From: Calditrichia bacterium
GTDB lineage: Bacteria; Calditrichota; Calditrichia; RBG-13-44-9; J075
Length of the DNA: 64,000 nucleotides
Reading direction: 5' to 3'
Assembly: GCA_020634975.1 (NCBI GenBank)
Contig: JACKAQ010000001.1
Location: forward strand, 3,383,272-3,447,271
Position 1 is the first letter of the stretch. Each line of letters opens with the position of its first letter. Below, one piece after another: positions 12,402 through 31,087 of this stretch. Position numbers and translations under genes: made by a program. The notes beneath the pieces are model-generated. The model had not been told where the DNA came from. It worked only from the letters and a program-made list of their open reading frames with translations, and made no database searches.

Positions 12402-12582
12402 GACTCAACCGGTACTTTATAAATTTTTCAAACATTTGTACCAATACATAATCGTGTCTTTCAATTGAAAATTAAGATTAGAATTCAGGTTTTTGCATTG
12501 TTCCATTTCCATTGATTCACCACCTGCGAAATCTTATATTGGCCACATATGACGCGACATATACGTTAAACAGGAGGTAATT

Positions 12583-13911: not shown

Positions 13912-13943
13912 TTCCAGAAGTTACAATTTTTTTACGTTCAGAA

Positions 13944-13976
13944 AAGGCAGGGCAAAACCCTGCCTTTTTTGTTTTT
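13944..13976 (+). terminator. rho-independent terminator (GGCAGGG-CAAAA-CCCTGCC followed by a T-run)
   Basis: A perfect 7-bp GC-rich stem with a 5-nt loop is followed by TTTTTTGTTTTT. It lies 33 nt after the dehydrogenase stop. Confidence 0.7.
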
Positions 13977-14042
13977 GAGAGTTTATGCGAATTTTGTAGA
14001 TTTACAGATTCACCAAAAACTCAACAAAAGGATACCGACCGG

Positions 14043-15770
14043 ATGAGTTGGTTTATTGGCGCATTTCCAAACGGAAACGGGATAATTTCCAAAGAATTCT
14101 TTTTGCAAAAAACAGCGTTTTTGCCCGAACACCGATTGAAAATTTGCACCAAACAACTTTGCCTGATTGCCGGTGGCATCGCAGAAACTTGCCAGTTTTC
14201 TGTTGCTGCGGATGAAACATCCGGCTGGTTGCGGCAGGTGTTGGCATTCATTTTGTCGATGGATTGCCAACATTGATGACCGGCGCAGATTGGTCAACTG
14301 TTTTTGCCGGAGCTGAGACGGATTTGTCATCGCTCAACGGGCATTTTGCCGCAATTGGCTGGCAAAACCGACGCATCCGTTTTTTCACTGATCCGCTGGG
14401 GTTGCGCAACATTTTTTCCGGGAAATTGATGGCGTCATGTGGTTTGCAAGTCGCATCGACTGGTTGGCAGGTATAAAAGCGGTTGCAAAATCGAATTGGA
14501 AACATTCAGTGCGCACTGGCTGTTGATTAATCAATTGTCGCAGGAAAGCGGTGTAACCGGTGTTCGGCGGCTTTGCCAGGGCGGTATCGCAACGGCTGAA
14601 CCGGGAAAGTTCACGCTGACAAACCACGAATGGTTGCCGGATAAATCGCAAAATTTTTCCGAAAAATCGATGCCGGATTTATTGCGCGATTTTACTGTTT
14701 ACGCTCGGCGGGGAAAAACGCTGTCGCTGGGGTTGTCCGGCGGGCTGGATTCGCGGGTGCTGCTGGCACAGTTGCTCAACCAACCGAAAAATGATTGGGC
14801 TGTACACCTTTAATGTTCCGGAGCACCCGGATCGAAAGATTGCCGGTAACATCGCTTCAGCATTGGCATCCCGCAAACGGTAATCCCCGCTTTTTCCCCG
14901 ATACCGAAAAGATTTTTGAAATACTAAAAAACTATGTTGGGCAAACTCGATTGTCATCGCCGGCATCTGGGTTTGTTAATGTTCAATTTACAGCTATTTA
15001 CACCACCTCGGAAAAATCGTTATCGATGGCGGTTCGGGCGAAATTGCCCGGCGACGCTATCTGAACATGCTGCTGCTGCGGGGTAAAACAGCGCTGCTGA
15101 ATGGCAATGTTTCGCAAATTTTGCCGTTTTTGCATGTGCATCGCGCCAATATTTTACTGCGAAGTTCAGTTACAACTGGAAAACAGCCTTGCTGGCGAAC
15201 TGGAAAATGTGTGGTCCCAGATGCCAGATATCCGGCATTTTGGTGTGGAAAACTGGCTGGATTTGTTCGCCATCCGCACCCGATTTCCCAATTTTGCAGC
15301 CTGGAGCAAAGCCGGTCAGATAGTGAACTGGTGAATTTCATGCCGTTTGTGCAACCGGCATTTCTCCAAAAATGTTCGAGACACCGGTTCGCGAACGGGA
15401 TAACGGGCGAATGTTCCGCAAAATTATCCGCGAAAATTATCCATCGCTGACCCGTTTTTCACTCGTGAAAGATGGCATCGTTTATCCGTATCCGTTTAAA
15501 ACCATTTCTGCATCGCTGTGGATGAAAGGAAAACGCAAATTTGGGAAAGTGTATGTCGAGCAAAATACAATTCATTTGCTAACTGCGATTGAGCCACAAA
15601 TTCGCGGTTTGCTGGATTCCGCAACGGTGCGACAGAGTAATTTTTATGATTATCAGATGTTGCAACAGATTGTTGATGGGTTTTACAGCGGCGATCAGCG
15701 CCATGCCAAAGCTTTGGATTGGTGGCTGGCTTTCGAGCTGTATCGGCAGCAAATTGAGCAAACAATGTAA
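14043..15770 (+). pseudogene. asparagine synthetase (AsnB) / lasso-peptide-cyclase-like gene disrupted by at least five frameshifts
   Basis: Consecutive ORF pieces in frames 0, 2, 0, 1, 2(?), 1 and 0 together read like one AsnB-family protein. The blocks in order are 'HFAAIGWQNRRIRFFTDPLGLRNIF' (GFA..W / DPLG), the PP-loop 'LSLGLSGGLDSRVLLAQL', 'LYTFNVPEHPDRKIAGNIASAL', 'IVIDGGSGEIARRRY' and a C-terminal region. No single frame is open for more than about 130 codons. Confidence 0.55.
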
Positions 15771-15981
15771 TGCATATTTTGCACTTTGGCGCAAAAAGGT
15801 AATTTTTACATCATTTTCCGCAACAAAATTTCGAATCAATTTTATTCTCATAAACATTTATTTATAAAGCAATTAGCGGCATGCTTTTTTGTGCCGGAAT
15901 GTTGTGGCATGTCAATTGTTTTAATTAGAGCATACTAATTTTTTTAACGGTAAAACTATTGCTAAATTTTCGGAGGCTCTT

Positions 15982-17202
15982 TTGAAACAATCTTTGACAG
16001 GAAACATTTTCCGGATGTTCAGTATTTTCTGCTGCATTTCTTTGCCGATGGTTGCCCAGGTTTGGACAATTCAAAACAGTGGCGTATCCGATCAGCTCAA
16101 AAGCGTTCACTTTGTCAGCAATTCTGAAGGCTGGGTTTGCGGCGATAACGGGGCATTGTTGCACACGGTAAACGCCGGTGAAACATGGTCCCGCGTTGCG
16201 GTTTTCAGCAGTGATCTGCACGAAGTTGCGTTTTTGGATGCGCAAACCGGCATCGTTTCCGGTGATGACGGGGCAATTTTGCGCACAACCGATGGCGGCG
16301 CAAACTGGAGCATTGTTAATAGCGGCACCAGTTCGCAATTGCGTGGCTGCGGTTGGGGTGCGGATGGCATTGCCTGGGCAGCAGGTCGTGATGGCGTGTT
16401 GCTAAAATCGACAGATTTTGGAGCAACCTGGACCCTTCAGCAAAGCGGCACAACCAACCGGATTCGCTCGATCGTGGGATACGGCAGCACTCACGCATGG
16501 GCAGTCGGCAACGATGGATTGATTCGCAGCACAGCAAATGGCAACAGTTGGGCAGCCCAAAACAGCCCGGTTTCGGACAATCTCGAAGATGTTCAATTTA
16601 TCAACACCAACGTGGGATTTGTTTCCGGCAGCGGCACAGTGCTGTTTACCGATAACGGCGGCGCAACCTGGGCAGTTCGTGGCAGTGGCGTCAGCGGCGA
16701 AACCAACGGATTGTATTTTACGGACGAATCCAACGGCTGGGTTGTGAATGAAATGGGGCAAATTTTCCACACAACCAACGGCGGCGTAACCTGGGCAACA
16801 GAAACAACCGGCACTTCCGGTATATTAAATGATGTGTTTGTTGCAGCCAACGGCGCTGGTTGGGCGGTTGGCGATAACGGCGTCATTTTGAAACATGCGC
16901 CACTCACCGGAATTGATGATGAGCCGGAAACCGCCGTTCGCGAAAATAAACTGGCTCAAAATTACCCGAATCCGTTCAATCCCGCGACAACAATTGCATT
17001 TAATTTGGCCAGTTATCAAAAGGTGCAATTAACCGTTTACAACATTGCCGGTCAACAGGTGGCGGAATTGATCAATCAACCGTTGATTGCGGGCGCGCAT
17101 TCGGTTACCTTTTCCGGGGAAAACTTGCCTTCCGGGGTTTATTTTTACGAACTTCGTGCCGGCAGTTTTAACGAAATTAAAAAAATGATGCTGGTGAAAT
17201 AA
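15982..17202 (+). CDS. secreted BNR/Ycf48-like beta-propeller protein with a C-terminal T9SS sorting domain
   Basis: It has a TTG start with an upstream GGAGG and a signal peptide. At least six 'G...T.DGG.TW' repeats of the BNR/Ycf48 type are present. The C-terminus 'NYPNPFNPATTIAF...VYNIAGQQVAEL...SGVYFYELRAG' is a classic type-IX secretion CTD. Confidence 0.75.
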   Translation: MKQSLTGNIFRMFSIFCCISLPMVAQVWTIQNSGVSDQLKSVHFVSNSEGWVCGDNGALLHTVNAGETWSRVAVFSSDLHEVAFLDAQTGIVSGDDGAILRTTDGGANWSIVNSGTSSQLRGCGWGADGIAWAAGRDGVLLKSTDFGATWTLQQSGTTNRIRSIVGYGSTHAWAVGNDGLIRSTANGNSWAAQNSPVSDNLEDVQFINTNVGFVSGSGTVLFTDNGGATWAVRGSGVSGETNGLYFTDESNGWVVNEMGQIFHTTNGGVTWATETTGTSGILNDVFVAANGAGWAVGDNGVILKHAPLTGIDDEPETAVRENKLAQNYPNPFNPATTIAFNLASYQKVQLTVYNIAGQQVAELINQPLIAGAHSVTFSGENLPSGVYFYELRAGSFNEIKKMMLVK

Positions 17203-17218
17203 ACCGGTCGATTATTTA

Positions 17219-17234
17219 TGGAACAATATTTGCA
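17219..17234 (+). promoter_or_regulatory. candidate sigma-54 (-24/-12) promoter TGGAAC-N5-TTGCA upstream of the cytochrome gene block
   Basis: The sequence is 'TGGAACAATATTTGCA', with GG and GC spaced by 10 nt as in the TGGCAC-N5-TTGCW consensus. There is one mismatch in the -24 hexamer. It lies about 75 nt upstream of the 17308 start. Confidence 0.4.
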
Positions 17235-17307
17235 AATCCAAACATGGTAACGTAATCCGGTGACACTTTGTATACCGGATTAACGGTTTTAATAACGATT
17301 AACAACA

Positions 17308-18219
17308 ATGATGCAGCCTGTGAAGAATACGCACACGAAAACCCAACGCGACTGGTTTAAAATTGGTTTGAAAATAGTTTATGTAATTTCGTTATCAATT
17401 TACGCATACTATTTGATAGACGGATTGGGATTTTACCAACTACCGTTTCAGGAACGTCCGCATCACGAGGCATACCGGAATTTGCGGTCCGCCGGATTGC
17501 GCGGGCACGGTTTTGGCATTATCGGTTCGCTGATGATGACGTTGATGCTCCTGTATTCTGTTCGGAAACGAACCAACTGGTTTGGCAAATGGGGCGCGAT
17601 CAGCCGTTGGTTGGATGTGCATATTTATCTCGGGATCATGGGACCACTACTGGTCATTTTGCATACTACCTTTAAGTTGAACGGCATTGTTGCGGTTAGC
17701 TTCTGGTCGATGATCGCGGTTTCCGGCAGCGGAATTTTGGGGAGATATTTGTATTTGCAAATTCCCCGGAACCGGCGCGGAGACGAACTCAGCCTGAAAG
17801 AAATTGAATCGCTCGATCAGGAATTTTCGGAAGAACTTTCCCGCGAACTGGGGCTGAAAAACGGTAAGCTTGCCCGGCTTCAGGAAATTGCCGGTGTGCA
17901 AAATGTAAACAAAGATGCCGGGTTGTTCAGTTTGCTGATGGGCATGCTCCGGTTCGACCTGTTCAGCTTTTTTCGTAAATACCGGCAGCAGCGGATGTTG
18001 CGGAAAGAATTCCAGCTGGACAGCCAGCAATTGAAAGCCGCAATCGAAATTTTGCATCGCAAACAATTGCTGGAACGCCGGATTTTACTGCTCAATCATG
18101 TTCAGCGGCTGTTCCATTATTGGCATGTGTTTCACAAGCCATTCGCGATTTTAATGTTTCTGATCATGATTTTACATATCGGCGTGGCAGTTTGGTTGGG
18201 TTACACATGGATTTTTTGA
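17308..18219 (+). CDS. polytopic membrane protein with conserved intramembrane histidines, possibly a b-type cytochrome / quinol-interacting subunit
   Basis: Several TM helices carry His pairs: 'WLDVHIYLGIMGPLLVILHTTF', 'LFHYWHVFHKPF' and 'MILHIGVAV'. The gene leads the multiheme cytochrome block. The functional call is an inference from the architecture only. Confidence 0.4.
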   Translation: MMQPVKNTHTKTQRDWFKIGLKIVYVISLSIYAYYLIDGLGFYQLPFQERPHHEAYRNLRSAGLRGHGFGIIGSLMMTLMLLYSVRKRTNWFGKWGAISRWLDVHIYLGIMGPLLVILHTTFKLNGIVAVSFWSMIAVSGSGILGRYLYLQIPRNRRGDELSLKEIESLDQEFSEELSRELGLKNGKLARLQEIAGVQNVNKDAGLFSLLMGMLRFDLFSFFRKYRQQRMLRKEFQLDSQQLKAAIEILHRKQLLERRILLLNHVQRLFHYWHVFHKPFAILMFLIMILHIGVAVWLGYTWIF

Positions 18220-18308: not shown

Positions 18309-20027
18309 TTGACCATTCAATCAGCATGCATCTGGCAGCACATATTTTTTCGGTTTTGGCGAATCGTTTTTTTGTGGAATGTTTTTGCAGCAACCTTCGC
18401 AATTGCGCAGCTTTCGCCGGGCGATCTGCACCAGTCTCACGCCAAATTAGAGGGGTTGAGCAATTGCACCAAATGCCATTCCAGCGGCGCACAAATCGAT
18501 CTGGGAAAATGTCTCGATTGTCATAAATTGCTAAAACAGCGCATCGATTCGAACAAAGGGTTGCATGCCCGACCGGATTACAGTGATTGTGTCCACTGCC
18601 ACAACGACCATCACGGCAGAGATTTCGAAATGGTATTCTGGAAAGAGGGACAGGATAATTTTGACCATGATTTGACCGGTTACCGGCTGGAAGAAAAACA
18701 TGCCGAACTGAAATGCCGGGACTGCCATAAACCCGCCAATATCGCCGATCCGCAGCCGTTGCTCAATCAGGATAAAAATCTCGAACGCACATTCTTGGGA
18801 TTGCAGCAAGCCTGTTTAACCTGCCATGCGGATGAGCATCGCGGGCAATTGGCGGAAGATTGTCTGAAATGTCACACCTACAGCGGTTGGAAACCTGCCA
18901 ACCGTTTTGATCACGACAAAGCCAAATTCCGGCTGACCGGATTGCACCGGGATGTAAAATGTGTCGATTGCCACAAAGAAGAGCGTGATAATCGCACAGC
19001 GGACGACCCGACATTTGCCCGGTTTACGGGCATCGCATTTCAGAATTGCACAAACTGCCACGAAGATGTGCACCGGGGACAATTCGGACAAAATTGCCAA
19101 AAATGCCACAGCACTGCCGGCTGGAAAAAGCTGCTTGCCAATGCGGATTTCAATCATAATTTAACGCGATATCCATTGCGCGGCAAACACGCCACAGTTG
19201 CCTGCGAAAGCTGCCACAAACCCGGCATTCCGCGTCGCGGATTGGCATTTGCCAAATGCACCGATTGTCACACAGATTTTCACCTCGGGCAATTTGCGGC
19301 ACGTCCCGGCGGCATCGCCTGCGAAAATTGTCACACTGTCAAAGGGTTTTCTCCCGCGAACTTTACGTTCGACGATCACGCCAAAACGGATTATCCGTTG
19401 GAAGGCGCGCACCTTGCCATTCCCTGCATCGCCTGTCACGCGGGCACGCCAAACGGGCGTGGCAGTTCGCGATCAATGTTGCGGATCAACCGGTTTACCT
19501 TTGTGTCCACCAAATGCATCGATTGCCACAAAGACCCGCATTTCGGCGAAACCAAACGCTTTGTGGATATCAACGGCTGCGAAAGCTGCCATCGCGTGGA
19601 TAGCTGGCGGAGCATCGAATTCGATCACAGCCAAACCGATTTTGCACTGCTCGGCAAACATAACAGCACTGGCTGCATTCAATGCCACGTTCCGGCTGCG
19701 GAAACATCCGGCGGCAAAAGGATTCCGTTCCAGAATATGGCGCAGAATTGCCAACACTGTCACGCGGACAAACACAACGGTCAGTTTGTTACCACATTTG
19801 TTTCCGCCGGAAAAGAAATTCGAGGTACTGATTGCGCCCGGTGTCACGGCGAAGAAAATTGGCAACCGGTGAAATTTGATCATAATCGCGATTCCAAATT
19901 TTCGCTCGAAGGCGCACACGAAAAAGTTGCCTGCGAAGCATGTCACATGACTGTTGCGGAAGCGGACGTCACTTTCCGGCAATTTAAACCACTCGGCAGC
20001 GAGTGTTCGGATTGCCACGGCGGGTGA
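18309..20027 (+). CDS. multiheme c-type cytochrome, 20 CxxCH motifs, with an N-terminal hydrophobic anchor or signal
   Basis: The 20 counted CxxCH sites include CTKCH, CLDCH, CVHCH and CSDCH. Many are followed by a distal His. It has a TTG start with AAGGGAG immediately upstream. Confidence 0.85.
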   Translation: MTIQSACIWQHIFFRFWRIVFLWNVFAATFAIAQLSPGDLHQSHAKLEGLSNCTKCHSSGAQIDLGKCLDCHKLLKQRIDSNKGLHARPDYSDCVHCHNDHHGRDFEMVFWKEGQDNFDHDLTGYRLEEKHAELKCRDCHKPANIADPQPLLNQDKNLERTFLGLQQACLTCHADEHRGQLAEDCLKCHTYSGWKPANRFDHDKAKFRLTGLHRDVKCVDCHKEERDNRTADDPTFARFTGIAFQNCTNCHEDVHRGQFGQNCQKCHSTAGWKKLLANADFNHNLTRYPLRGKHATVACESCHKPGIPRRGLAFAKCTDCHTDFHLGQFAARPGGIACENCHTVKGFSPANFTFDDHAKTDYPLEGAHLAIPCIACHAGTPNGRGSSRSMLRINRFTFVSTKCIDCHKDPHFGETKRFVDINGCESCHRVDSWRSIEFDHSQTDFALLGKHNSTGCIQCHVPAAETSGGKRIPFQNMAQNCQHCHADKHNGQFVTTFVSAGKEIRGTDCARCHGEENWQPVKFDHNRDSKFSLEGAHEKVACEACHMTVAEADVTFRQFKPLGSECSDCHGG

Positions 20028-20202: not shown

Positions 20203-22152
20203 ATGAACAAATGGATTAACATCATCGCTGTGGTTTTGGGGTTGGCGCAAATGGTTTTTGGGCAAGAAAATGTGCAGAATCCGCAGAGCAATGTGCAGAA
20301 TCCGCACGGCAAAATAAAATGGGAATGTGTGGATTGCCACACTACCGAATCGTGGACGGAAATGAAAGACCCGATGGTTTTCCGCCACGAAGCAACCGGT
20401 TTTGCGCTGGTTGGCGCACACAAAATTACCCAATGCATGAGTTGCCACGAAAGCCCGAAATTTGCCGAAGTCGGTGCTGCCTGCGCCGATTGCCACACCG
20501 ATGTGCACCAGGGTGAATTTGGCATCAATTGCCAGAGCTGCCACACTGCGCAAACCTGGGAAAACCGGATCGACGTTCGGCAATTGCACGCGGCTCGCGG
20601 TTTTCCGCTATCCGGTGGACATGCAGTTGCGGATTGCCAAAGCTGCCACATCAGCGAACAGCGCAACGAATTTGCCGGTACCGCAAGCGCCTGTTTTTCC
20701 TGCCACATCGCGGAATTTAACGAAACGGTCGATCCAGATCACCAGCAAGCTGGATTTTCGCTGAACTGCGAAAATTGCCACCAACCCGCGGCAATCGCCT
20801 GGAATCAGAATGTGCGATTTGATCACTCGATTTTTGAATTACGCGGCGCCCACAAAACCACCGAATGCGCGGCATGTCACACCGAACAATTTACCGGAAC
20901 GCCACGCGAATGTTTCGCCTGTCACGAAGCGGATTTCCAGACAGCACAATTGCCCGATCACATTTCGCTCGGTTTCCCAACCGAATGCGCTGAATGCCAC
21001 AACGAAACGCGTTGGCAAGGCGCTGCATTCGATCATATTTCCGCCAGTGGATTTCCTCTGAACGGTGCGCACAGCACGATTTTCTGCGCCGAATGCCATG
21101 TGGACAATCAGATGACCGGATTGCCGCGTGATTGCTTCGGTTGCCACAACGATGATTATCAGGAAACCACCGATCCCAACCACGTTCTCGGAAATTTCCC
21201 GCAGGATTGTTTGGTTTGCCATAACGAATTAACCTTTGTTCCGGCAGATTTCGATCACAATTTGACCCAGTTTCCGCTTACCGGCGCACATGCGACGCTT
21301 CAGTGCGAAAGCTGCCACGAAACCGGCGATTTCACCGCGTTGCCAACGGAGTGCTATTCTTGCCATCAACCGGATTTTGAGGGCACAACCGATCCGGGGC
21401 ATGTGCAAAATAACTTCAGTTTCGATTGTACGCTTTGTCACAGCACTTCCGCATGGGAACCGGCGACGTTTGACCATAACGCCACCGATTTCCCGCTGAC
21501 CGGTGCGCACATCGGGCTGGATTGTTTGAGCTGCCACAGTTCCGGGTATGCCGGAACCCCAACCGCCTGCGTTTCCTGTCACGAAGATGATTTTCAGGCG
21601 ACGACGGATCCCAACCACATCGCTGCTGCATTTCCGCTGGAATGCGAAGTTTGCCACAGCACGGTAGCGTGGGAGCCCGCAATATTTGATCACGATAACA
21701 CAGATTTTCCGTTGACCGGTGCGCACACCGGTGTGGATTGCAACAGTTGTCACGCCAGCGGATACACCGGCACGCCGACAGCATGTGTCAGTTGCCATCA
21801 ATCCGATTTTGACAACACAACCGATCCCAACCACATTGCGGCAAACTTTCCGGTTCAGTGCGAAGTTTGCCATAGCACCACCGCATGGGAGCCGGCAAAC
21901 TGGAATCACGATCAGCTGTATTTCCCGATTTACTCCGGCGAGCACCGCAACGAGTGGGATACCTGCGCGGATTGTCACCTCGACCAGACCAATTTTGCCA
22001 CTTTCGAATGCATTTTCTGTCACGAGCACCGCCAATCGGAAATGGATGACGAGCACAACGACGTGAACAACTACGTTTACGAAAGCACCGCTTGCTACAA
22101 TTGCCACCCGGACGGCCGGGAATTGATGCAATTGGATCGGATGCGTAATTAG
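20203..22152 (+). CDS. multiheme c-type cytochrome, 25 CxxCH motifs, secreted, with a modular tri-heme repeat architecture
   Basis: It has a signal peptide. There are 25 CxxCH sites. A module of about 65 aa, 'FDH..TDFPLTGAH....C.SCH..GY.GTPT.C.SCH..DF..TTDPNH', recurs at least six times. The conserved C-terminus is 'CIFCHEHRQSEMDDEH...CYNCHPDGRE'. Confidence 0.9.
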   Translation: MNKWINIIAVVLGLAQMVFGQENVQNPQSNVQNPHGKIKWECVDCHTTESWTEMKDPMVFRHEATGFALVGAHKITQCMSCHESPKFAEVGAACADCHTDVHQGEFGINCQSCHTAQTWENRIDVRQLHAARGFPLSGGHAVADCQSCHISEQRNEFAGTASACFSCHIAEFNETVDPDHQQAGFSLNCENCHQPAAIAWNQNVRFDHSIFELRGAHKTTECAACHTEQFTGTPRECFACHEADFQTAQLPDHISLGFPTECAECHNETRWQGAAFDHISASGFPLNGAHSTIFCAECHVDNQMTGLPRDCFGCHNDDYQETTDPNHVLGNFPQDCLVCHNELTFVPADFDHNLTQFPLTGAHATLQCESCHETGDFTALPTECYSCHQPDFEGTTDPGHVQNNFSFDCTLCHSTSAWEPATFDHNATDFPLTGAHIGLDCLSCHSSGYAGTPTACVSCHEDDFQATTDPNHIAAAFPLECEVCHSTVAWEPAIFDHDNTDFPLTGAHTGVDCNSCHASGYTGTPTACVSCHQSDFDNTTDPNHIAANFPVQCEVCHSTTAWEPANWNHDQLYFPIYSGEHRNEWDTCADCHLDQTNFATFECIFCHEHRQSEMDDEHNDVNNYVYESTACYNCHPDGRELMQLDRMRN

Positions 22153-22334
22153 TTTTCAAAGCAAAAAACAAGTTGAAAGATATTCAAGAAATAACGCCAC
22201 GGAGACACAGAGTGCACAGAGCATTGAAAATAAATAACTTAAAAAGCCCTCTGTTTTCTCTGTGTCTGTGGTTTCGCAAAATTTTTTAACGTTTACTCAG
22301 AAATAAAATTTTTACCCAAAGCAAGGTTTGCAAA

Positions 22335-23957
22335 ATGAAACAGATGTTGAAAATCGCAATTGCGCTATGGCTCGCATTCACGTTGTTTGGCGTGTCGGCG
22401 CAGGAAAAAACCACCCGGTACGAGGTTCGCTATGTTTCTGCGGAAAATGTATATCTTGCGGCGGGCAGCCAGGTTGGGCTGGCGATTGGCGATACGCTGG
22501 AAATCCGCGATCGCGGTAAAATGATTGCCCGGGTGCTGGTCACTTACGTTGCGGAACAATCGTCGAGCTGTCAGATTTTGACCGCCACAGGCGAAATCCG
22601 TCCGGGAATGGGCGCGGTTTTGACTGGCGCAGCGCCGCAAACCGAACCCGGTTTACCCGGTGAAACGGAATCCGGCGACGTATCGAACGAAACAAAAAAG
22701 CGCACCGTCACTGTCCGGACAAAACAAAAATCCCAAAAATCCACCGATCTCAGCGGCAGCATTTCGCTGCGCTATTACACGCTGAACGATCTCACCGAAC
22801 GCAATCTCGATTTTAAACAGCCCACATTTCGGATCAATTTGCGGGCAAAACGGTTGTGGGGAAAAGATTACACACTGCGCATCCACACCCGCACCCGCCA
22901 CGATGAGCGCACCCGTGCCTATCGCGAAGACGTGCCCAAAAGCGAATGGCGCAACCGGATTTACCAGTTTGCACTCGGTTACGAAAACCGCGATGCCCGG
23001 GTAAATTTCCGGCTCGGGCGCATCACCACCAACCGGCTGAGCGGCGTTGGCTACATCGACGGATTGCAGTTGCAATTCAACCTTTCGCCATCGGTTGATG
23101 TGGGAATTTTGGGCGGCACGCAGCCGAACTGGCGCGATTCTGCACCGCAAACGAATGTTCAAAAAGCTGGTGCATTTCTTCATTTTCAAAACGGCGAGAT
23201 GCGCGGTCGCTTTTTCGAAACGACCGTTGCCGCCGCCGGCGCGTATGCGGATGGCGTGGTCAGCCGGGAGTTTTTGTACTGGCGTAGCAATTTTCGTTCG
23301 CCGGGCGGATTCAGCTTTTTCCACATGCTGGAAATGGACATGAATCGCAATTGGCGAAAAGAAAAAACCGGCAAAAGCGCGGTGCTCTCCAATCTTTATC
23401 TGTCCGCGCGGCAGCGTATTTCCGATGCGGTTACTGCCGGCGTTACTTTCGATAACCGGCAAAATTACTGGACTTACGAAATTCGCACATTGGCAGACAG
23501 TCTGTTCGACGATGCGCTCCGAACCGGATTTCGCGGCAATCTTTCCGTTAAATTGCCCGGCAGGATTTACGTTTTCGCCAACGGCGGTTTGCGCAAAATT
23601 GAACGGGATAATGTTACCACAACCTCGTACGCTATCGGCTTGAATCGCAGCGGATTGCCCGGCAACACATCGCTGCGGCTGAACGGCTCCGGTTTTTCGA
23701 ACAAGAATACCAACGGCACGAATATCGGCGGCGATATCGGCAAAAGCTTCTCCGCCGGTCACCGGATCGATATCGGTTATTCGCGCTACGCCTATTCGTT
23801 CGATTGGGACGGCATCAATCGCGTGACCGATACGTACAGCGCGCAAGCCTATTTGATGCTGCCGGCACGGCTGTTTTTCAGCGGGCTGTATCAATACGAT
23901 CTGGGCGATGATATCGAAGGTTTCCGAATGTATCTGGAATTCGGGTATCGTTTTTAA
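22335..23957 (+). CDS. outer-membrane beta-barrel protein encoded between the two 25-heme cytochrome paralogs (putative porin component of a porin-cytochrome complex)
   Basis: It has a signal peptide and about 540 aa. The alternating-hydrophobic strand pattern ends 'YLEFGYRF', a terminal Phe. The position is analogous to mtrB/ombB-type genes. Confidence 0.65.
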   Translation: MKQMLKIAIALWLAFTLFGVSAQEKTTRYEVRYVSAENVYLAAGSQVGLAIGDTLEIRDRGKMIARVLVTYVAEQSSSCQILTATGEIRPGMGAVLTGAAPQTEPGLPGETESGDVSNETKKRTVTVRTKQKSQKSTDLSGSISLRYYTLNDLTERNLDFKQPTFRINLRAKRLWGKDYTLRIHTRTRHDERTRAYREDVPKSEWRNRIYQFALGYENRDARVNFRLGRITTNRLSGVGYIDGLQLQFNLSPSVDVGILGGTQPNWRDSAPQTNVQKAGAFLHFQNGEMRGRFFETTVAAAGAYADGVVSREFLYWRSNFRSPGGFSFFHMLEMDMNRNWRKEKTGKSAVLSNLYLSARQRISDAVTAGVTFDNRQNYWTYEIRTLADSLFDDALRTGFRGNLSVKLPGRIYVFANGGLRKIERDNVTTTSYAIGLNRSGLPGNTSLRLNGSGFSNKNTNGTNIGGDIGKSFSAGHRIDIGYSRYAYSFDWDGINRVTDTYSAQAYLMLPARLFFSGLYQYDLGDDIEGFRMYLEFGYRF

Positions 23958-24105
23958 CCCGAATTTACGTAAATTGCTGAAAATTATGGAAACAGCATCT
24001 TCTCTACGAAGAACCGCATGAGGGGATATTTATTATAGATTTGATACTAATCGCGCAAAATGACGGCTCATAAATTTTGTGCAAAGGCGTGATGGGAAGA
24101 TAAAC

Positions 24106-26031
24106 ATGCGTTGGGCAGCGGTTATTCTGATTGTTGTCGTTTGGGTTAGCAATGGTTTTTCGCAAAATAATTCAAACAATCCCCACGGGAAAATCAAATG
24201 GGATTGCATCAATTGCCACACAACGGATTCGTGGACAACGTTGAAAAAGCAAATGGATTTTGATCACGATGACACCCGGTTTTCGCTGGAAGGAGTGCAT
24301 CAAACCACCGATTGTATGAGCTGCCACACCCTCAAATTTGCCGATGCAACCCGCGCTTGCCTCGATTGTCACACAGATGCACACGAAGGCAATTTGGGCA
24401 TGTATTGCCAGAATTGCCATACACCGCAAAGCTGGAACGATCCCCAAAATATGTTGCAAATTCACGCTGAACGGGGATTTCCGTTGTCCGGTGCACATGC
24501 GATTTCCGATTGTCAGTCCTGCCACACAACCGAGCTGTTCAACGAGTTTTCCGGCACCGCGAACAGCTGTTTCACCTGCCACATGGACGATTTTACCCAA
24601 ACCGAAAATCCAGATCACCAAAGCGCCGCATTTTCGATGCAGTGCGAAACCTGCCATCTTCCCGCTGCCATCAATTGGCAGCAGAGCGTGCGATACGAAC
24701 ATCCGCCGCAATTTGCTATCAACGGTGCGCACCGCTCGCTGGACTGCGCCGAATGCCACAGCGAAACCTTTGCCGGAACGCCGGATATGTGTTTCGATTG
24801 CCATTCAGAAGCGTTCCGCAGCGTAGAAATGCCTGACCACGCGGCGATGGGTTTCCCGACTGAATGCGCAGTTTGCCACTCGGAAAACGGTTGGCAGGGT
24901 GCCGCATTCGATCACGTTCAGGCCAGCGGATTTGAGTTGAACGGCGCACATGCGATTGCCCAATGTGTCGATTGCCACGCCGATAACCAATTGGCAGGAT
25001 TGCCGCGCGACTGTTTCGGCTGCCACGAAACGGAATTTCAGGAAGCGCTGGAACCAAATCACGTTGCCAATAATTTTCCGATGGAATGCCAAAATTGCCA
25101 TGTGGAAGTTGCCTGGCAGCCCGCCACATTTGATCACGATTTGACGGATTTCCCGCTTTCCGGGGCGCATGCGACAATCCAGTGCGCGGATTGCCACGAA
25201 AATGGCGAATTCATCGCGCTGCAAACCGACTGTTACGCCTGCCATCAGATTGATTTTGAAAACGCTAACGAACCTGATCATGTGGCAAATAACTTCAGTG
25301 TTGTGTGCACGGATTGCCACACAGATCTCGCGTGGGAACCGGCGACGTTTGATCACAACGCGACAGATTTCCCGCTGACCGGTGCGCATGTTTCGGTGAA
25401 CTGCATCGATTGCCACAGCGCTGGTTACACCGGTACGCCGACAGCATGTTTCGCCTGCCATGAAACCGATTTTCAAAACACAACCAATCCAAACCACGTT
25501 GCTGCGGGGTTTCCGCTGGAATGCGAGGTGTGCCACACTACAACAGAGTGGCAATCTGCAACATATGATCACGACCAAACAGGCTATCCGCTAACCGGGG
25601 CACATAATTTGCTAACCTGTAATGACTGTCATTCGGGCGGTTATTCCGGCACACCGACGGTTTGTGTGGGTTGCCATTTGGATGATTATCAGGGCACAAC
25701 CGATCCGGATCATGCGGCAGCCGGATTTCCCACAGAGTGCGAAACGTGCCACAATACCACAAGGTGGGATCAGACAAACTGGAATCATGATCAGTTGTAT
25801 TTTCCGATTTACTCCGGGGAGCATCGAAATGAGTGGAATACTTGCGCCGACTGCCATGTGGACCAGAATAATTTTGCGGTTTTCGAGTGCATTTTCTGCC
25901 ACGAACACCGTCAATCAAAGATGGATGATGAACACGATGGTGTAACCGGTTATGTTTACGAAAGCGGTGCCTGTTATGCCTGTCACCCGGATGGTCGCGA
26001 GCGAATGCGACTGGAGCGCATCAGGCAATAG
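24106..26031 (+). CDS. multiheme c-type cytochrome, 25 CxxCH motifs; paralog of 20203..22152
   Basis: The module order is the same and the termini are near-identical ('NPHGKIKW.C..CHTT.SWT', 'CIFCHEHRQSKMDDEH...CYACHPDGRE'). An AGGGAAG SD precedes the ATG at 24106. The ORF track's earlier ATG at 24079 is less likely. Confidence 0.9.
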   Translation: MRWAAVILIVVVWVSNGFSQNNSNNPHGKIKWDCINCHTTDSWTTLKKQMDFDHDDTRFSLEGVHQTTDCMSCHTLKFADATRACLDCHTDAHEGNLGMYCQNCHTPQSWNDPQNMLQIHAERGFPLSGAHAISDCQSCHTTELFNEFSGTANSCFTCHMDDFTQTENPDHQSAAFSMQCETCHLPAAINWQQSVRYEHPPQFAINGAHRSLDCAECHSETFAGTPDMCFDCHSEAFRSVEMPDHAAMGFPTECAVCHSENGWQGAAFDHVQASGFELNGAHAIAQCVDCHADNQLAGLPRDCFGCHETEFQEALEPNHVANNFPMECQNCHVEVAWQPATFDHDLTDFPLSGAHATIQCADCHENGEFIALQTDCYACHQIDFENANEPDHVANNFSVVCTDCHTDLAWEPATFDHNATDFPLTGAHVSVNCIDCHSAGYTGTPTACFACHETDFQNTTNPNHVAAGFPLECEVCHTTTEWQSATYDHDQTGYPLTGAHNLLTCNDCHSGGYSGTPTVCVGCHLDDYQGTTDPDHAAAGFPTECETCHNTTRWDQTNWNHDQLYFPIYSGEHRNEWNTCADCHVDQNNFAVFECIFCHEHRQSKMDDEHDGVTGYVYESGACYACHPDGRERMRLERIRQ

Positions 26032-26067: not shown

Positions 26068-27411
26068 ATGGAATCTATGATTATTTATTTAGCAACAGCG
26101 GCTTTGGCTGTTATCATTTTTATACCTTATTTTGTCAAATTTCGTAAAAAACAACATGAAAATTATGAGCGCCGGAAAGAGGCTGAAACGCTGGGTGTAA
26201 TTCGACCGCAGTCGCAATTTCCACTAATTGACCAGTCACTGTGCATCGGTTGCGGTTCCTGTGTACTGGCCTGTCCGGAAGGTGATGTTTTGGGTGTAGT
26301 GCACGGCAAAGCCATGATTATCAACGGTTTACGCTGTGTTGGTCACGGGCATTGCGAAACAGCTTGTCCTGTTGGTGCCATCAAAGTCGGGCTTGGCGAC
26401 ATCACCACCCGCGATGATATTCCGGTTCTGGACAGCGGTCACCAAAGCAATGTACCCGGATTATATGTTGTTGGAGAATTGGGTGGGTTATCGCTCATCC
26501 GGAACGCCATTGCCCAGGGGCAAAATGCCGTTCGGGAATTGGCCAAAACGTTGCCGGCCAATCGTGATCGTACCATTCGGGATTTGCTGATTGTAGGTGC
26601 AGGCCCGGCAGGATTGACCGCAGCACTCACCGCCAAAGAGCAGGGGTTGAATTATCTGTTGATTGATCAGCAGGAACCGGGCGGCACCATTTTGCAATAT
26701 CCCCGACGCAAATTGGTGATGACCCAGCCGATCAATATACCGCTTCACGGGCGGCTCGACAAAACAGAATACACCAAAGAAGATTTGCTGGAAATCTGGC
26801 AGCGAATTATCAACAAACATCAATTGAATATCCAAACCGGTGAGCGGCTGACCGGGATAAATCCGGTTGGTGATGAATTTGAATTGGTCACCCAAAACAA
26901 CTCTTTTTATGCCCGAAAAGTAGTGTTGGCGTTGGGCAGGCGCGGCACACCGCGAAAATTGGGCGTGCCCGGTGAGAAAATGTCCAAAGTCGCCTATCAG
27001 TTGATCGATGCGCAATCGTATCAAAATGCCCATATTTTGGTGGTTGGCGGCGGCGATAGCGCTGTCGAAGCTGCCATTGCCCTGGCTCGCCAAAAAGGAA
27101 ATATCGTTTCCATTTCCTATCGCAAAAATAAATTTTTCCGCATCAAAAAGAAAAACGAAGATCGCATTATGCGATTGATAAAAGAGAAAAAAGTGCTGCC
27201 GTTGTTCGAATCAACGGTATTGGAAATAGAGCCGGATCGCGTGATTTTGCAGCAAGATGTGGAAATGTTTGAGATCCCCAACAATTATGTTTTTATTTTT
27301 GCCGGCGGAATTCCGCCGTTCAAAATGTTGCAGGAAATGGGTATCCGTTTTGGCGGCGAAGCCAAAACATTTGCGCCACCGGTAGCTGTTCCGTCGGGTT
27401 TCAGCAACTAA
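26068..27411 (+). CDS. membrane-anchored 2x[4Fe-4S] ferredoxin domain fused to an FAD/NAD(P)-binding pyridine-nucleotide oxidoreductase (thioredoxin-reductase-like fold)
   Basis: It has an N-terminal TM helix. 'CIGCGSCVLACPEGD' and 'CVGHGHCETACPVGA' are ferredoxin-type clusters. 'LLIVGAGPAGLTAALTA' and 'HILVVGGGDSAVEAAIALA' are dinucleotide-binding motifs. Confidence 0.75.
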   Translation: MESMIIYLATAALAVIIFIPYFVKFRKKQHENYERRKEAETLGVIRPQSQFPLIDQSLCIGCGSCVLACPEGDVLGVVHGKAMIINGLRCVGHGHCETACPVGAIKVGLGDITTRDDIPVLDSGHQSNVPGLYVVGELGGLSLIRNAIAQGQNAVRELAKTLPANRDRTIRDLLIVGAGPAGLTAALTAKEQGLNYLLIDQQEPGGTILQYPRRKLVMTQPINIPLHGRLDKTEYTKEDLLEIWQRIINKHQLNIQTGERLTGINPVGDEFELVTQNNSFYARKVVLALGRRGTPRKLGVPGEKMSKVAYQLIDAQSYQNAHILVVGGGDSAVEAAIALARQKGNIVSISYRKNKFFRIKKKNEDRIMRLIKEKKVLPLFESTVLEIEPDRVILQQDVEMFEIPNNYVFIFAGGIPPFKMLQEMGIRFGGEAKTFAPPVAVPSGFSN

Positions 27412-27465: not shown

Positions 27466-28503
27466 TCAATAACTCGCCTCATCCAACTTCACTTTTCCGC
27501 TGAACGTTTTGTAAACGAAAATGGTGTAGCCCGCAACCAGCGGCGCACCGATGGCCACAATGGTCATCATAATTTCCAGCGTTTTTTGGGAAGACGCCGC
27601 ATTGTACACATCAATATTGTACGCCGGATCGACCGTGGACAGCAGGATATTCGGATACAACTCGATGGCGGAAAGGATCAGCAAAAAACTGATGGTCAGC
27701 GATGAAAAAATGAATGCCTGCAAAAATTTGCGCTGCGATGCCAGTCGCGGCAAATTGGCGATGCTCAAAAACGCCAGTACCGGCAGTAAAAAAAGGATCT
27801 GGTTCGAGCGGAAATCGTCGGACAAATGCGGTATGTAAAGCAATGTATAAAGCGTTGTAATACTGAAAGTTACGATAAAAAATATCATCGCGTATTTTTG
27901 CAGTTCGAGCAACTGTTTGTAGAGTTTGCCCTCCGTTTTCAGCAGCAAATAAATCGCGCCATGCGACATAAACAGCGTCAGCGATGTCAGCCCGACCAGA
28001 ATCGAATACAAATTCAAAAATTCAAAAAAACCGGCGCCCTGATACACATAATCCGGGCCGATGGCGATACCCTGCAACACATTCCCCAACACAACGCCGA
28101 GCAAAAACGCGAGCATAATGCTGGAAATGGAATACGAAACGTCCCACATTTGCCGCCACCAGCGCATCGGTTCTTTGCTGCGAAATTCAATCGAAATTGC
28201 GCGAAAAATGATGAACAGGAGGAACAGCATAAACGGCACATACATCGCGGAAAATAATGTTGCGTACACCACCGGAAATCCCGCAAACAACGCGCCGCCG
28301 CCGATAACCAGCCACACTTCGTTGCCGTCCCAAACCGGTCCGACCGCGTTCAGCGCAATCCGCCGGCTTTCCTCTTTTTTGAAAAACAAATGAAATGCGC
28401 CGGCGCCAAAATCAAAACCGTCCAAAATGGCGTATCCGGAAAACAGCGCCCCGACCACCAAAAACCACCATGTGGGATAATCTATACCAAATAATGTTTC
28501 CAT
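27466..28503 (-). CDS. cydB: cytochrome bd ubiquinol oxidase subunit II
   Basis: The N-terminus 'WWFLVVGALFSGYAILDGFDFGAGA' is characteristic of CydB. The protein is polytopic. The gene sits 3 bp downstream of cydA. Confidence 0.9.
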   Translation of the reverse strand: METLFGIDYPTWWFLVVGALFSGYAILDGFDFGAGAFHLFFKKEESRRIALNAVGPVWDGNEVWLVIGGGALFAGFPVVYATLFSAMYVPFMLFLLFIIFRAISIEFRSKEPMRWWRQMWDVSYSISSIMLAFLLGVVLGNVLQGIAIGPDYVYQGAGFFEFLNLYSILVGLTSLTLFMSHGAIYLLLKTEGKLYKQLLELQKYAMIFFIVTFSITTLYTLLYIPHLSDDFRSNQILFLLPVLAFLSIANLPRLASQRKFLQAFIFSSLTISFLLILSAIELYPNILLSTVDPAYNIDVYNAASSQKTLEIMMTIVAIGAPLVAGYTIFVYKTFSGKVKLDEASY

Positions 28504-28506
28504 CGT

Positions 28507-29886
28507 TTATTTTCCAGTTAAAATGGTTGTTATTCCTTTAGTTAAAGGTCTGTCTTCAATTTCTGATTCATCGAACGGGCCGTGTTTGATTTTTTTATCG
28601 AGCAGATATAAAAATAGCGCAAACAATAACGCGTAAATCAGGAAAAACATGATCAGTGAAAACAGAACCTGGTTGGCGGTTACCGATGCCGAAAGTGCGT
28701 CCGATGTGCGCAGTAATCCGTAAACGACCCACGGTTGCCGACCCATTTCCGCGGTAAACCAACCGACCTGATTGGCAATCTGCGGCAGTAGCACCGCGAA
28801 TACGAATATTTTGAGTAACCATTTGTTTTCGAATAACTTACCGCGCCACAGCAGAAAGCTGGCCAGCAACGTTAGCCCGATCAGCGCCATCCCGATTGCC
28901 ACCATAATATGATAAAATTGGAACACCGCATTCACCTGCGACGGGCGATCTGTTTCGGGAAACGCGTTTAGTCCGGTCACCGGTGCGGTGACATCGAAAT
29001 TCAGCAAAAACGATAAACCGCCGGGAATTTTCAACCCGGTAACTTCCTGATTTTCAGCATCCACCCAGCCAAAAATATACAGGTCAGCCGGGGCGCTGGC
29101 ATCGAAATGTCCCTCCAGCGCCGCCAGTTTTGCGGGTTGGTTTACCGCAACGCCTTCCGCCGATTTGTGTCCGGTGAACAGTTGTCCCAGCGAAAAAATC
29201 GTGGCAACAACCAGCGCAATGCTGAACGCTTTTTTGGAAATTTCGACATATCGCCCTTTCAGCAAATAGTAGGCATGAACGCTCAGCACCAAAAATGCGC
29301 CGGCAAGAAATGCACCCAACCAAACGTGCAGCAGCCTGTCCACGCTGGACGGGTTGAACACCATTGCCCAAAAATCGGTGATTTCCGCGCGGGCGCGAAT
29401 GCCTTCACCAACGATGTGAAATCCCGCCGGCGTTTGCTGCCAGCTATTTGCCACGACAATCCAGACGGCGGAAAACATGGAGCCGAGAAATACGCCGATG
29501 GTCGAAATGAGGTGAACTTTCGGTGAAACGCGGTTCCAGCCGAACAGCAGCACCCCGAGAAATCCGCTTTCCAGCGCGAACGCAAAAATGCCTTCGGCCG
29601 CCAACGCGCTGCCGAACACATCGCCCACATATCTGGAATAGGTTGCCCAGTTGGTGCCGAATTCAAATTCCATTACAATTCCGGTAACTACACCAATGCC
29701 GAAAGTTAACGCGAAAATTTTCGTCCAGAAACGGGCGAGAATTTCGTATTTTTTATCTTTCGTCCGGACGTACTGGCTTTCGAAAATAACCATGAGCAAC
29801 CCCAAACCGATGCTCAACGGCGGGTAGATATAATGAAATGCCACAGTAAATGCAAACTGGATTCTGGCTAATATTTCTACATCCAT
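28507..29886 (-). CDS. cydA: cytochrome bd ubiquinol oxidase subunit I
   Basis: The N-terminus '[28 protein letters not shown]' is characteristic of CydA. The Q-loop region and multiple TM helices are present. Confidence 0.9.
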
Positions 29887-30130
29887 TTTATGTATCCGTG
29901 AAATGATGTTTAACTTTGGGAAATTAAGCGCTTCAAAATTACCCGGAAATCCGCTGAAAAAAGCGGTTGAAATTACAATTTTCAGCGATATGTATCCTGA
30001 TACGCAACAAATTAATGGCTGCCGCAGCCGCTATCAACGACTTTGTGAAAATAATCCTCAAATTGGTGCGAACTCATTGTCCAGCCAAAAAAATTGTAAC
30101 TATTCTAAATTTGAGGGATATTATCTGTGT

Positions 30131-30622
30131 ATGAACGATCGAATGGTTGGCTTTTCGGAATTATATCGCCGATATGCGGCGGATGTGTACCGGTTCGCAT
30201 TTTGGCTGAGCGGCGATGGCGATGTGGCAAACGACATTGTTTCGGAAACATTTGTGAAAGTTTGGCTATCGAAAAAAGATGTGCAATTGCAAACTGTGAA
30301 AGCTTTTTTGTTTACCATCGCACGGAATGAATTTTTGAAAAGCCTGCGCAGCAACAAACGGCGCAGCGAAATACCGGAAGCATTGCTGGATGCCGCGCTG
30401 ATTGCGGATGAACAATTTGCCCAAACCGAATCGCTTCTGCGCACATTGCGACACCTCCGGCAACTGCCGGAAATCGATCGTGCTGTGCTCATTTTGCATG
30501 CGATGGAAGGATTGCCGCAACAGGAAATCGCGACAATTTTAAACCTCAGCCTGTCGGCTGTGAAGGTGAAAATTTTTCGCTCCCGCCGTAAATTGCTGGA
30601 ATTAGCGCTAAATAGTGAGTGA
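30131..30622 (+). CDS. RNA polymerase ECF-type sigma-70 factor
   Basis: Region 2 reads 'LYRRYAADVYRFAFWLSGDGDVANDIVSETFVKVW' and region 4 reads 'LPQQEIATILNLSLSAVKVKIFRSRRKL'. The in-frame ATG at 30131 gives a typical size of about 163 aa. The ORF-track start at 29903 would add an unlikely 76-aa extension. Confidence 0.8.
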   Translation: MNDRMVGFSELYRRYAADVYRFAFWLSGDGDVANDIVSETFVKVWLSKKDVQLQTVKAFLFTIARNEFLKSLRSNKRRSEIPEALLDAALIADEQFAQTESLLRTLRHLRQLPEIDRAVLILHAMEGLPQQEIATILNLSLSAVKVKIFRSRRKLLELALNSE

Positions 30623-30661
30623 GGATAAAGACAATGTTTTCAATAATTTGGAGATAAAAAA

Positions 30662-31087
30662 ATGAACATAACGGAACAGGTGATTCTGGATTTACTGCCG
30701 GTTTATCAATCCGGCGACGCCAGCGAAGACACCGTGAAATTGGTGGAAACATATTTAGCCGAACATCCGGATTTTGCCAAAAAAATCGCAAAAGCTTTGC
30801 CGGAAATTCCGGTTGAAGAAATTGCCCAAAAACATCAATTTATAAAGGAGAACGAAATGACCGCACTAACGCAAACCCGATCGCTGTTGCGCTGGAAAGG
30901 CATTTGGATGGGTTTTGCAATATTCTTTTCAGTTGCCCCGCTTTCATGTTATTCAACCGAGGCTACAGGTTTTCATTGGGTGTTTGAAAATTCGCCGCTT
31001 TTGGCGCTGGGATATTTTGCTGTTGGAATTTGTTGCTGGATCGCATTTTTTGTTATTCGACATCGCCTGAAAAGCACCGATTTGTAA
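30662..31087 (+). CDS. putative membrane-bound anti-sigma factor
   Basis: It lies immediately downstream of the ECF sigma gene. It has a soluble N-domain and two C-terminal TM helices. The call rests on position and topology only. Confidence 0.45.
   Translation: MNITEQVILDLLPVYQSGDASEDTVKLVETYLAEHPDFAKKIAKALPEIPVEEIAQKHQFIKENEMTALTQTRSLLRWKGIWMGFAIFFSVAPLSCYSTEATGFHWVFENSPLLALGYFAVGICCWIAFFVIRHRLKSTDL

Follow-up and report, generated by a model that had tools for sequence, protein, structure and literature searches.

The window analysed here, a 64,000-nucleotide stretch of DNA from a Calditrichia bacterium (contig JACKAQ010000001.1, positions 3,383,272 to 3,447,271), contains two long multiheme cytochrome genes, named A and B, which stand on either side of a gene for a predicted outer-membrane beta-barrel protein, BAR. 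Six open reading frames between 17308 and 27411, all on one strand, encode a putative b-type cytochrome (IMP), a further multiheme cytochrome (c20), A, BAR, B and an iron-sulfur flavoprotein (FER), and their positions are collected in Table 1. The product of A is 100% identical to NCBI H6629_13705, a “hypothetical protein” of a Calditrichae bacterium metagenome-assembled genome (MAG). The initial annotation of this DNA described A and B as collinear paralogs with equal numbers of CxxCH motifs that are built from a recurring tri-heme module. Its positions for the two reading frames are exact. The observation holds up, with the corrections given below, and applies more widely than that annotation supposed: A and B count among the smaller proteins of a very large family of modular cytochromes, as yet unnamed and uncharacterised.

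The products of A and B align from end to end in a single BLASTP alignment with 61% amino acid identity. Each protein has 25 CxxCH motifs, no cysteine elsewhere and 26 non-motif histidines at collinear positions, which bears out both the collinearity and the equal motif counts. In both proteins the 25 hemes divide into one N-terminal heme and eight groups of three (1 + 8 × 3), and cutting after every third heme yields units of 67-79 amino acids (aa). Modules 3-7 are canonical, with 72-74 aa and a CxxCH spacing of 32-33/15-16/25. Module 2 differs little from these (35/19/25), and the first (36/16/16) and the eighth (35/15/28) are divergent “caps”. The module consensus, FDH..T.FPLTGAH...C..CH...GTP..C..CH..DF..TTDPNH, agrees with the motif of the initial annotation, which had counted at least six tandem copies with a period of about 65 aa; the count is corrected to eight modules plus one N-terminal heme, and the period given was too short. 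The mean pairwise module score is 138 compared with 41 ± 2.5 once every residue other than Cys and His is shuffled, and for modules 3-7 alone it is 202 compared with 50 ± 4.5 under the same shuffling. Since these scores far exceed those of the shuffled sequences, the modules resemble each other well beyond the heme motifs, and the internal periodicity is not confined to them.

Modules 6 and 7 of A are 77% identical. Each module of A has its best match in the module of the same number in B (53-79% identity), with the exception of module 7 of A, which best matches module 6 of A, and because of this pairing the eight-module layout can be placed before the duplication that gave rise to A and B. 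The C-terminal caps (C-caps) of the two proteins are 79% identical. On the DNA of the window, Tandem Repeats Finder (TRF) detects no 216-nt tandem array, as the repeats have diverged too far, and the repeat in A and B is therefore seen only at the protein level. A separate 21-nt tandem duplication (2.1 copies, 91% match; window 20269-20312) lies just past the signal peptide of A; it encodes NVQNPQS/NVQNPHG and doubles the start of the motif of the N-terminal cap (N-cap).

Both proteins have approximately 26 aa per heme. Each module contains three non-motif histidines, while the few methionines are not conserved from A to B, so that every one of the 25 hemes in each protein can, as judged from the residues available, be bis-His ligated. 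The Pfam family PF14522 (Cytochrome_C7; cut-off 24.8 bits) matches A with 119.2 bits (E = 6.7e-35) in eight stretches and B with 103.5 bits in six stretches. A and B also have the same class of signal peptide (type I), the same N-cap and the same C-cap.

Table 1. Genes and protein segments of the cytochrome cluster and its upstream neighbour, with positions counted from the first letter of the window.
Feature	Position	Strand	Basis or remark
IMP, putative di-heme b cytochrome (ferric-reductase/b561 type), 303 aa, inner membrane	17308..18219	+	sequence motifs, homologs
c20, 572-aa cytochrome with 20 CxxCH and irregular heme spacing	18309..20027	+	motif count
Gene A, modular cytochrome, 649 aa, 25 hemes: signal peptide, N-cap heme, 8 tri-heme modules	20203..22152	+	
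A, N-terminal core: heme 1, special module 1 (36/16/16), module 2 (35/19/25)	20263..20781	+	
A, modules 3-7: five canonical tri-heme modules, 72-74 aa	20782..21873	+	
A, C-cap module (35/15/28) and basic tail	21874..22152	+	
BAR, 540-aa outer-membrane protein: signal peptide, N-terminal beta domain (aa 28-98), disordered linker, 22-strand beta-barrel	22335..23957	+	
Gene B, 25-heme paralog of A, 641 aa, lineage-specific extra copy downstream of the barrel	24106..26031	+	alternative GTG start at 24079
B, modules 3-7: five canonical tri-heme modules	24658..25752	+	
B, C-cap module and tail	25753..26031	+	
FER, 447 aa, predicted cytoplasmic: 2x[4Fe-4S] ferredoxin domain and FAD/NAD(P)-binding Pyr_redox_3 domain	26068..27411	+	
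BNR/Ycf48-like beta-propeller with C-terminal sorting domain of the type IX secretion system (T9SS)	15982..17202	+	cluster membership unproven

The duplication that produced A and B is old. The two genes have 67% nucleotide identity, their synonymous sites are saturated (proportion of synonymous differences, pS, 0.71) and the nonsynonymous divergence (dN) is 0.28. The near-identity that the initial annotation had reported for both ends of the proteins holds for one end only. Aligned residues 1-38 are 50% identical, the signal peptides differ and only the short mature N-cap NPHGKIKWxCxxCHTTxSW is conserved, whereas the last ~70 residues are 77-87% identical. The C-cap has the lowest dN of the comparison (0.137) and yet its synonymous sites are fully saturated, so its likeness reflects constraint rather than recent gene conversion. 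Gene conversion at the ends of A and B was considered separately and ruled out, as neither third-position identity nor pS is any better there. The sister genome, labelled L002, is a complete Calditrichia chromosome (OZ245730.1) with about 93% DNA identity to the window. B is 61% identical to A, to the A of L002 and to the homolog P0087, and at most 56% identical to the copy of any other lineage, values that place B as an in-lineage paralog of A. Horizontal import of B was likewise ruled out, the nearest relatives of B being the A clade of its own lineage. Measured against the L002 ortholog, the ratio dN/dS is 0.075 for A and 0.09-0.10 for B, within the range of 0.05-0.10 found for all cluster genes, and B is under purifying selection.

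The family to which A and B belong follows a simple rule. A search with the whole of A was saturated at more than 5,433 homologs, most of 800-1,136 aa, in Ignavibacteriales, Bacteroidota, Acidobacteriota, Gemmatimonadota and others. The heme count leaves a remainder of one on division by three in 95 of the top 120 homologs, and 86 of the 89 relatives that have both end caps carry 3n+1 hemes, with a range of 13 to 58. The opening spacing pattern of A recurs at the start of 119 of 182 relatives and of the minimal 10-heme paralogs, and the C-cap motif is conserved across phyla. A profile of the module matched 5,062 proteins among 1.84 billion representative proteins, with up to 32 copies in each, and its top match has 94 hemes (3 × 31 + 1) and the same caps. 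The minimal family member is a 10-heme paralog of ~265 aa, made up of the N-cap heme, modules 1 and 2 and the C-cap and nothing else (spacing 32/16/16/34/19/25/35/15/28). Its gene adjoins the barrel gene in twelve related loci, alongside a long copy. Compared across its members, the family is best described as a fixed 10-heme core in which n canonical 72-aa modules follow module 2 and precede the C-cap; n is 5 in both A and B.

The 10-heme gene lies just upstream of the barrel gene in loci L008, L013, L014, L023, L031, L039, L040 and L057. The relatives also include three giants, P0361 (2321 aa), P0362 (1987 aa) and P0364 (2005 aa). One of these has 94 hemes and the same caps, and one has 79 hemes and internal C-cap motifs (YFPIYSGKH...). 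The third has 81 hemes, with an irregular N-terminal spacing like that of c20 followed by A-type modules and the C-cap, and may be a fusion of c20 with an A-type cytochrome.

The number of modules differs even between close relatives. The ortholog of B in L002 (L002 11744-15424) has 16 modules and 49 hemes compared with 8 modules and 25 hemes in the window. The eight extra modules, located after module 5 and before module 6, are 88-100% identical in amino acids and 83-96% in nucleotides, and form a TRF array of 216 nt × 8.9. Within this array, a block of four modules has seemingly been duplicated (modules 6-9 resemble 10-13). Assembly collapse of the shorter B of the window was ruled out, as the L002 module subtype is wholly absent from it and the extra copies are only 83-96% identical at the nucleotide level. 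Contigs L059/L060 and L061 come from different metagenomes, are 99.7-99.98% identical in DNA and differ by an exact 72-aa module indel in the A ortholog, which has 22 hemes in L059 (8256-10001) and 25 in L061 (7153-9114); this difference reflects either copy-number variation at the population level or assembly collapse. The A-type cytochromes of L031 and L057 have 28 and 25 hemes with barrels that are 94.5% identical, and those of L017 and L018 have 22 and 19 hemes with barrels that are 86% identical. Module number shifts through in-frame tandem duplication and deletion of a 216-bp unit over short evolutionary time scales. With whole modules gained and lost between close relatives, and with the 3n+1 rule, the earlier description of A and B as modular, extensible heme-wire proteins is well founded.

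The surroundings of A are conserved as well. A search based on a barrel alignment of 12 closer sequences, with one genome per species, located 57 loci, mostly in Calditrichota with some in Zixibacteria, KSB1, Fibrobacteria and others. In most of them the same order recurs: IMP, c20, an A-type cytochrome (sometimes two or three), the barrel and FER. Of 28 complete c20 orthologs, 25 carry 20 hemes, whereas the A-type cytochromes of the cluster vary from 10 to 58 hemes. Of 56 loci, 42 have FER directly after the barrel gene, and a single one, that of the sister genome L002, has a cytochrome there. In the nearest outgroup lineage (L059-L061) the barrel is followed by FER and there is no B, and where extra A-type paralogs occur at other loci they lie upstream of the barrel.

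These gene orders bear on the suggestion of the initial annotation that the duplication around the barrel gene yielded a periplasmic and an extracellular partner from one ancestor. Spelled out, A would be the periplasmic and B the extracellular protein, and the two would meet inside BAR in the manner of MtrA and MtrC within MtrB. The order cytochrome-barrel-cytochrome in the window is real, B is kept by purifying selection, and clusters with two or three A-type paralogs recur (a long and a 10-heme copy in the twelve loci above), which makes a division of labour plausible. However, B is present in just one of the 56 related loci and missing from the nearest outgroup lineage, so the conduit evidently needs no cytochrome gene after the barrel, and extra paralogs elsewhere occupy the other side of the barrel gene. 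No lipobox or T9SS sorting domain was found in A, B or c20, and no lipobox in the N-terminus of any A-type ortholog. With the same type of signal peptide and the same caps, nothing in the sequences of A and B distinguishes their localisation, and the comparison of loci does not support a partner pair, which we regard as unlikely. B is most likely a second cable gene, alternative or additional to A, rather than a topologically distinct partner.

The barrel protein has no family in Pfam or NCBIfam. Its AlphaFold2 model (predicted local distance difference test score, pLDDT, 87) has 22 strands, and structure searches with BAR return generic outer-membrane barrels only. A further explanation, rather improbable in our estimate, would keep the cytochromes in the periplasm as electron stores (capacitors) or relays whose module number tunes their capacity, with the barrel as a porin for a soluble substrate or shuttle. 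A density of 26 aa per heme, a heme number free to range from 10 to 94 and the lack of an export signal beyond Sec are compatible with such a role, and the idea was raised by Hoover et al. (2023) for PCC3, a porin-cytochrome cluster considered below (PMC9900912). The barrel gene, however, is strictly co-located with an A-type gene in most of the 57 loci, and its product is large and 22-stranded with a periplasmic N-terminal domain. Length is also difficult to reconcile with storage in the periplasm. The dodecaheme cytochrome GSU1996 is approximately 12 nm long with 12 hemes, or about 1 nm per heme. If they are extended in the manner of GSU1996, proteins of the family with 49-94 hemes would be far longer than the periplasm is wide, and a 94-heme chain greatly so.

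IMP and FER provide the likely connection of the cluster to the cytoplasm. IMP has hydrophobic segments, two W-x3-H-x13-H motifs (aa 101 and 272) and an SGxxG motif (SGILG at aa 141), and the four motif histidines are invariant in an alignment with homologs from Emticicia and Sphingomonadales. UniRef lists its homologs as “Ferric reductase like transmembrane component”, and some of them carry PF01292. IMP heads the cluster in most related loci, and FER adjoins IMP in L050/L051 and in an Emticicia plasmid. The latter is pEMTOL02 (NC_018749.1, L062), a plasmid of ~100 kb in the cultured isolate Emticicia oligotrophica DSM 17448, where the cluster (78197-89995) comprises ccsA, IMP, FER, a 23-heme cytochrome, a 40-heme A-type cytochrome and the barrel. 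The presence of the whole cluster on a plasmid of a cultured Bacteroidota isolate suggests that the cluster is mobile. On a Sphingobium megaplasmid, a FER-like protein fused to cyclic-nucleotide (cNMP)-binding domains pairs with IMP, and a 10-heme cytochrome lies nearby with no adjacent barrel homolog. The pairing of IMP with a cytoplasmic flavoprotein is consistent and can be seen in the window at 17308-18219 and 26068-27411, in L062 at 11959-14131 and in L065 at 12150-17325. IMP and the flavoprotein look like a split module of the NADPH oxidase (NOX)/ferric-reductase type. Such a module could deliver the electrons of NAD(P)H or ferredoxin to periplasmic cytochromes directly, with no quinone in between.

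The same pair could in principle belong to a respiratory module of the Hmc/Qrc type, which would join periplasmic redox enzymes to cytoplasmic metabolism through IMP and FER with no extracellular role. The Sphingobium arrangement, where no barrel homolog is adjacent, is in keeping with such a module, as is a weak likeness to HmcA, QrcA and the nine-heme cytochrome c in NCBIfam and to the PDB entries 1z1n and 19hc. The NCBIfam scores for all three families are nevertheless far below their cut-offs (53 vs 400 for HmcA), the barrel gene is conserved within the cluster, and no hydrogenase or formate dehydrogenase genes lie nearby, which leaves this explanation very improbable.

The closest described system is that of the PCC3 porin-cytochrome clusters. 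PCC3 has a porin and an IMP of ~300 aa with two W-x3-H-x13-H motifs and one SGxxG motif, and these IMP motifs are the hallmark of PCC3 and PCC4 clusters (He et al. 2017, PMC5566968). The multiheme cytochromes (MHCs) of PCC3 have ~66-aa repeats with three hemes each, amounting to 24 hemes in 8 repeats and 27 aa per heme, and the PCC3 porin of Leptothrix cholodnii has 22 predicted strands (PMC5566968). The periplasmic MHCs of PCC3 contain 21, 24 or 27 hemes, and some clusters have two copies of one MHC (PMC9900912). PCC3 in ES-1 is not induced by Fe(II) (PMC8788666), and PCC3 itself is uncharacterised. The window cluster shares with PCC3 the IMP motifs, a barrel of 22 strands as predicted here, approximately 26 aa per heme, eight tri-heme repeats and heme numbers that change in steps of three, the likeness of the cytochromes being one of resemblance only. 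It differs from PCC3 in its three MHCs (20, 25 and 25 hemes), in the 3n+1 rule and the defined caps, in the conserved Fe-S flavoprotein FER and in having no MHC of another repeat type, which would be an obvious candidate for an extracellular MHC like that of PCC3. The hosts also differ, being Calditrichota and relatives in the Fibrobacterota-Chlorobiota-Bacteroidota (FCB) group here and Fe(II)-oxidising and other Proteobacteria for PCC3. The likeness to PCC3, whose reference proteins are Slit_0867-0870, Slit_1446-1449 and those of Leptothrix cholodnii (Lcho), was drawn from published descriptions and motifs. A profile search with IMP listed mainly Sphingomonadales and metagenome proteins, and the PCC3 reference organisms were not among them.

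At the level of the single module, the c7 polymers of Geobacter sulfurreducens (GSU1996, GSU0592, GSU2210) are comparable. They are concatenated tri-heme domains of ~70-80 aa that form an elongated “wire”, thought to have arisen by domain duplication (PMC11492766). Concatenated tri-heme c7-like units are shared with the window proteins, in agreement with their Cytochrome_C7 matches. The NCBIfam model TIGR04257 (nanowire_3heme) gives A 30.1 bits against a cut-off of 40 with no single stretch passing, and B is not listed. Each tri-heme domain of GSU1996 has one His-Met heme (PDB 3OV0), whereas the window modules have no conserved Met. In PpcA the order of the unit is H,H,heme,H,heme,heme, whereas inspection of the window sequences gives H,H,heme,heme,H,heme. 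GSU1996 also differs in having no N- or C-caps, no 3n+1 rule and no barrel-linked cluster.

MtrCAB and MtoAB, which are decaheme porin-cytochrome complexes, resemble the family in its minimal member, as the ~265-aa decaheme paralog is encoded directly beside the barrel like MtrA beside MtrB. Matches to the DmsE/MtrA family and to MtrC domain II/IV are weak, and TIGR03508 (DmsE/MtrA decaheme; cut-off 192 bits) scores 36.0 for A, 40.3 for B and 58.3 for c20. Unlike MtrAB and MtoAB, the window cluster has no 26-strand barrel of the MtrB/PioB type, and unlike MtrCAB it has no MtrC-like lipoprotein. The OmaB-OmbB-OmcB conduit of Geobacter includes an extracellular lipoprotein cytochrome, whereas A, B and the A-type orthologs have no lipobox. 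[quoted passage not shown] Judged by numbers rather than by sequence, its 61 (= 3 × 20 + 1) and 20 hemes fit the pattern of an A-type cytochrome with c20.

Taken together, A and B are most readily explained as paralogous secreted modular cytochromes that belong to a trans-envelope electron conduit, a reading to which we assign a probability of roughly 0.7. The conduit would be formed by the five-gene cluster of IMP, c20, the A-type cytochrome, the barrel and FER. Electrons would pass between the cytoplasmic Fe-S flavoprotein FER and the di-heme-b IMP at the inner membrane, and c20, with its constant length, would bridge the periplasm. The A-type cable, which varies in length, would associate with or pass through the outer-membrane barrel and extend beyond it, and its two ends would be held constant, presumably to dock partners. 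The hemes may stack in a continuous chain along the cable, and extracellular electron transfer is a likely function of the route, with electron flow possible in either direction.

Several observations weigh against this reading. No lipobox or T9SS signal occurs in any of the A-type cytochromes. The whole of A has no phmmer match to PDB sequences at E ≤ 0.01, and a Foldseek search of the PDB with the model of A gave no match. The module profile finds only nine- and sixteen-heme c3-type cytochromes in the PDB, and these at marginal E-values of 1e-3 to 1e-2. The AlphaFold2 model of A has low confidence (pLDDT 64; predicted template modelling score, pTM, 0.30). Two near-identical repeats may have collapsed during assembly, which would account for the one-module difference between L059 and L061. 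An operon is suggested by strand and conserved gene order only, and a promoter and terminator scan of the window, which is unsuited to this phylum, performed no better than on shuffled sequence.

A more far-reaching form of the conduit, which we put forward tentatively and consider doubtful, would make the A-type cytochromes adjustable single-polypeptide cables for quinone-independent extracellular electron transfer, fed from NAD(P)H or ferredoxin through FER and IMP. Here the fixed, MtrA-like 10-heme core would dock with the periplasmic 20-heme relay and the 22-strand barrel, and the gain and loss of 216-bp modules would tune the reach outside the cell on ecological time scales. Examples of such reach would be the 8 vs 16 modules at ~93% DNA identity and the members with up to 94 hemes. 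FER and IMP would act as the split NOX/ferric-reductase-like pair, and the route would be widespread in Calditrichota, Bacteroidota and allies.

Other genes of the window lie around the cluster. Homologs of the BNR/Ycf48-like propeller recur beside the cluster in many related loci, and the window copy (15982-17202) lies just upstream of IMP; the propeller may be a surface-exposed accessory of the cluster. Between FER and a dicarboxylate symporter gene, window 27466-31087 holds cydBA (cytochrome bd oxidase, minus strand), an ECF (extracytoplasmic function)-type sigma factor and a 141-aa open reading frame. Contigs of the L059-L061 lineage have the symporter and an aminotransferase immediately after FER, so this block is, like B, an insertion in the window lineage. 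A 2,265-aa open reading frame on the minus strand (46785-53582) has weak C-terminal Ig-like matches only (Big_1, FlgD_ig) and probably encodes a giant surface protein.

To our knowledge, the mechanistic understanding of wire cytochromes and porin-cytochrome conduits comes almost entirely from Shewanella and Geobacter. Modular heme wires in porin-cytochrome clusters were already known; the present variant and its building rule had not been characterised before. The family comprises thousands of proteins in Calditrichota, Bacteroidota, Ignavibacteriota, Zixibacteria, Acidobacteriota and others, and it obeys a rule that is simple and can be checked. The core of 10 hemes and the n added tri-heme modules make the family a natural series of lengths, running from 10 to 94 hemes between unchanging ends. 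Such a series is suited to tests of how electron-transfer rate, storage and reach depend on chain length, and engineered protein wires could be modelled on it. As Emticicia oligotrophica DSM 17448 is in culture, its plasmid copy opens the cluster to genetic and biochemical work. The pairing of an Fe-S flavoprotein with a b-type cytochrome suggests that this conduit is fed in a manner unlike that of the model organisms, which use quinol dehydrogenases.

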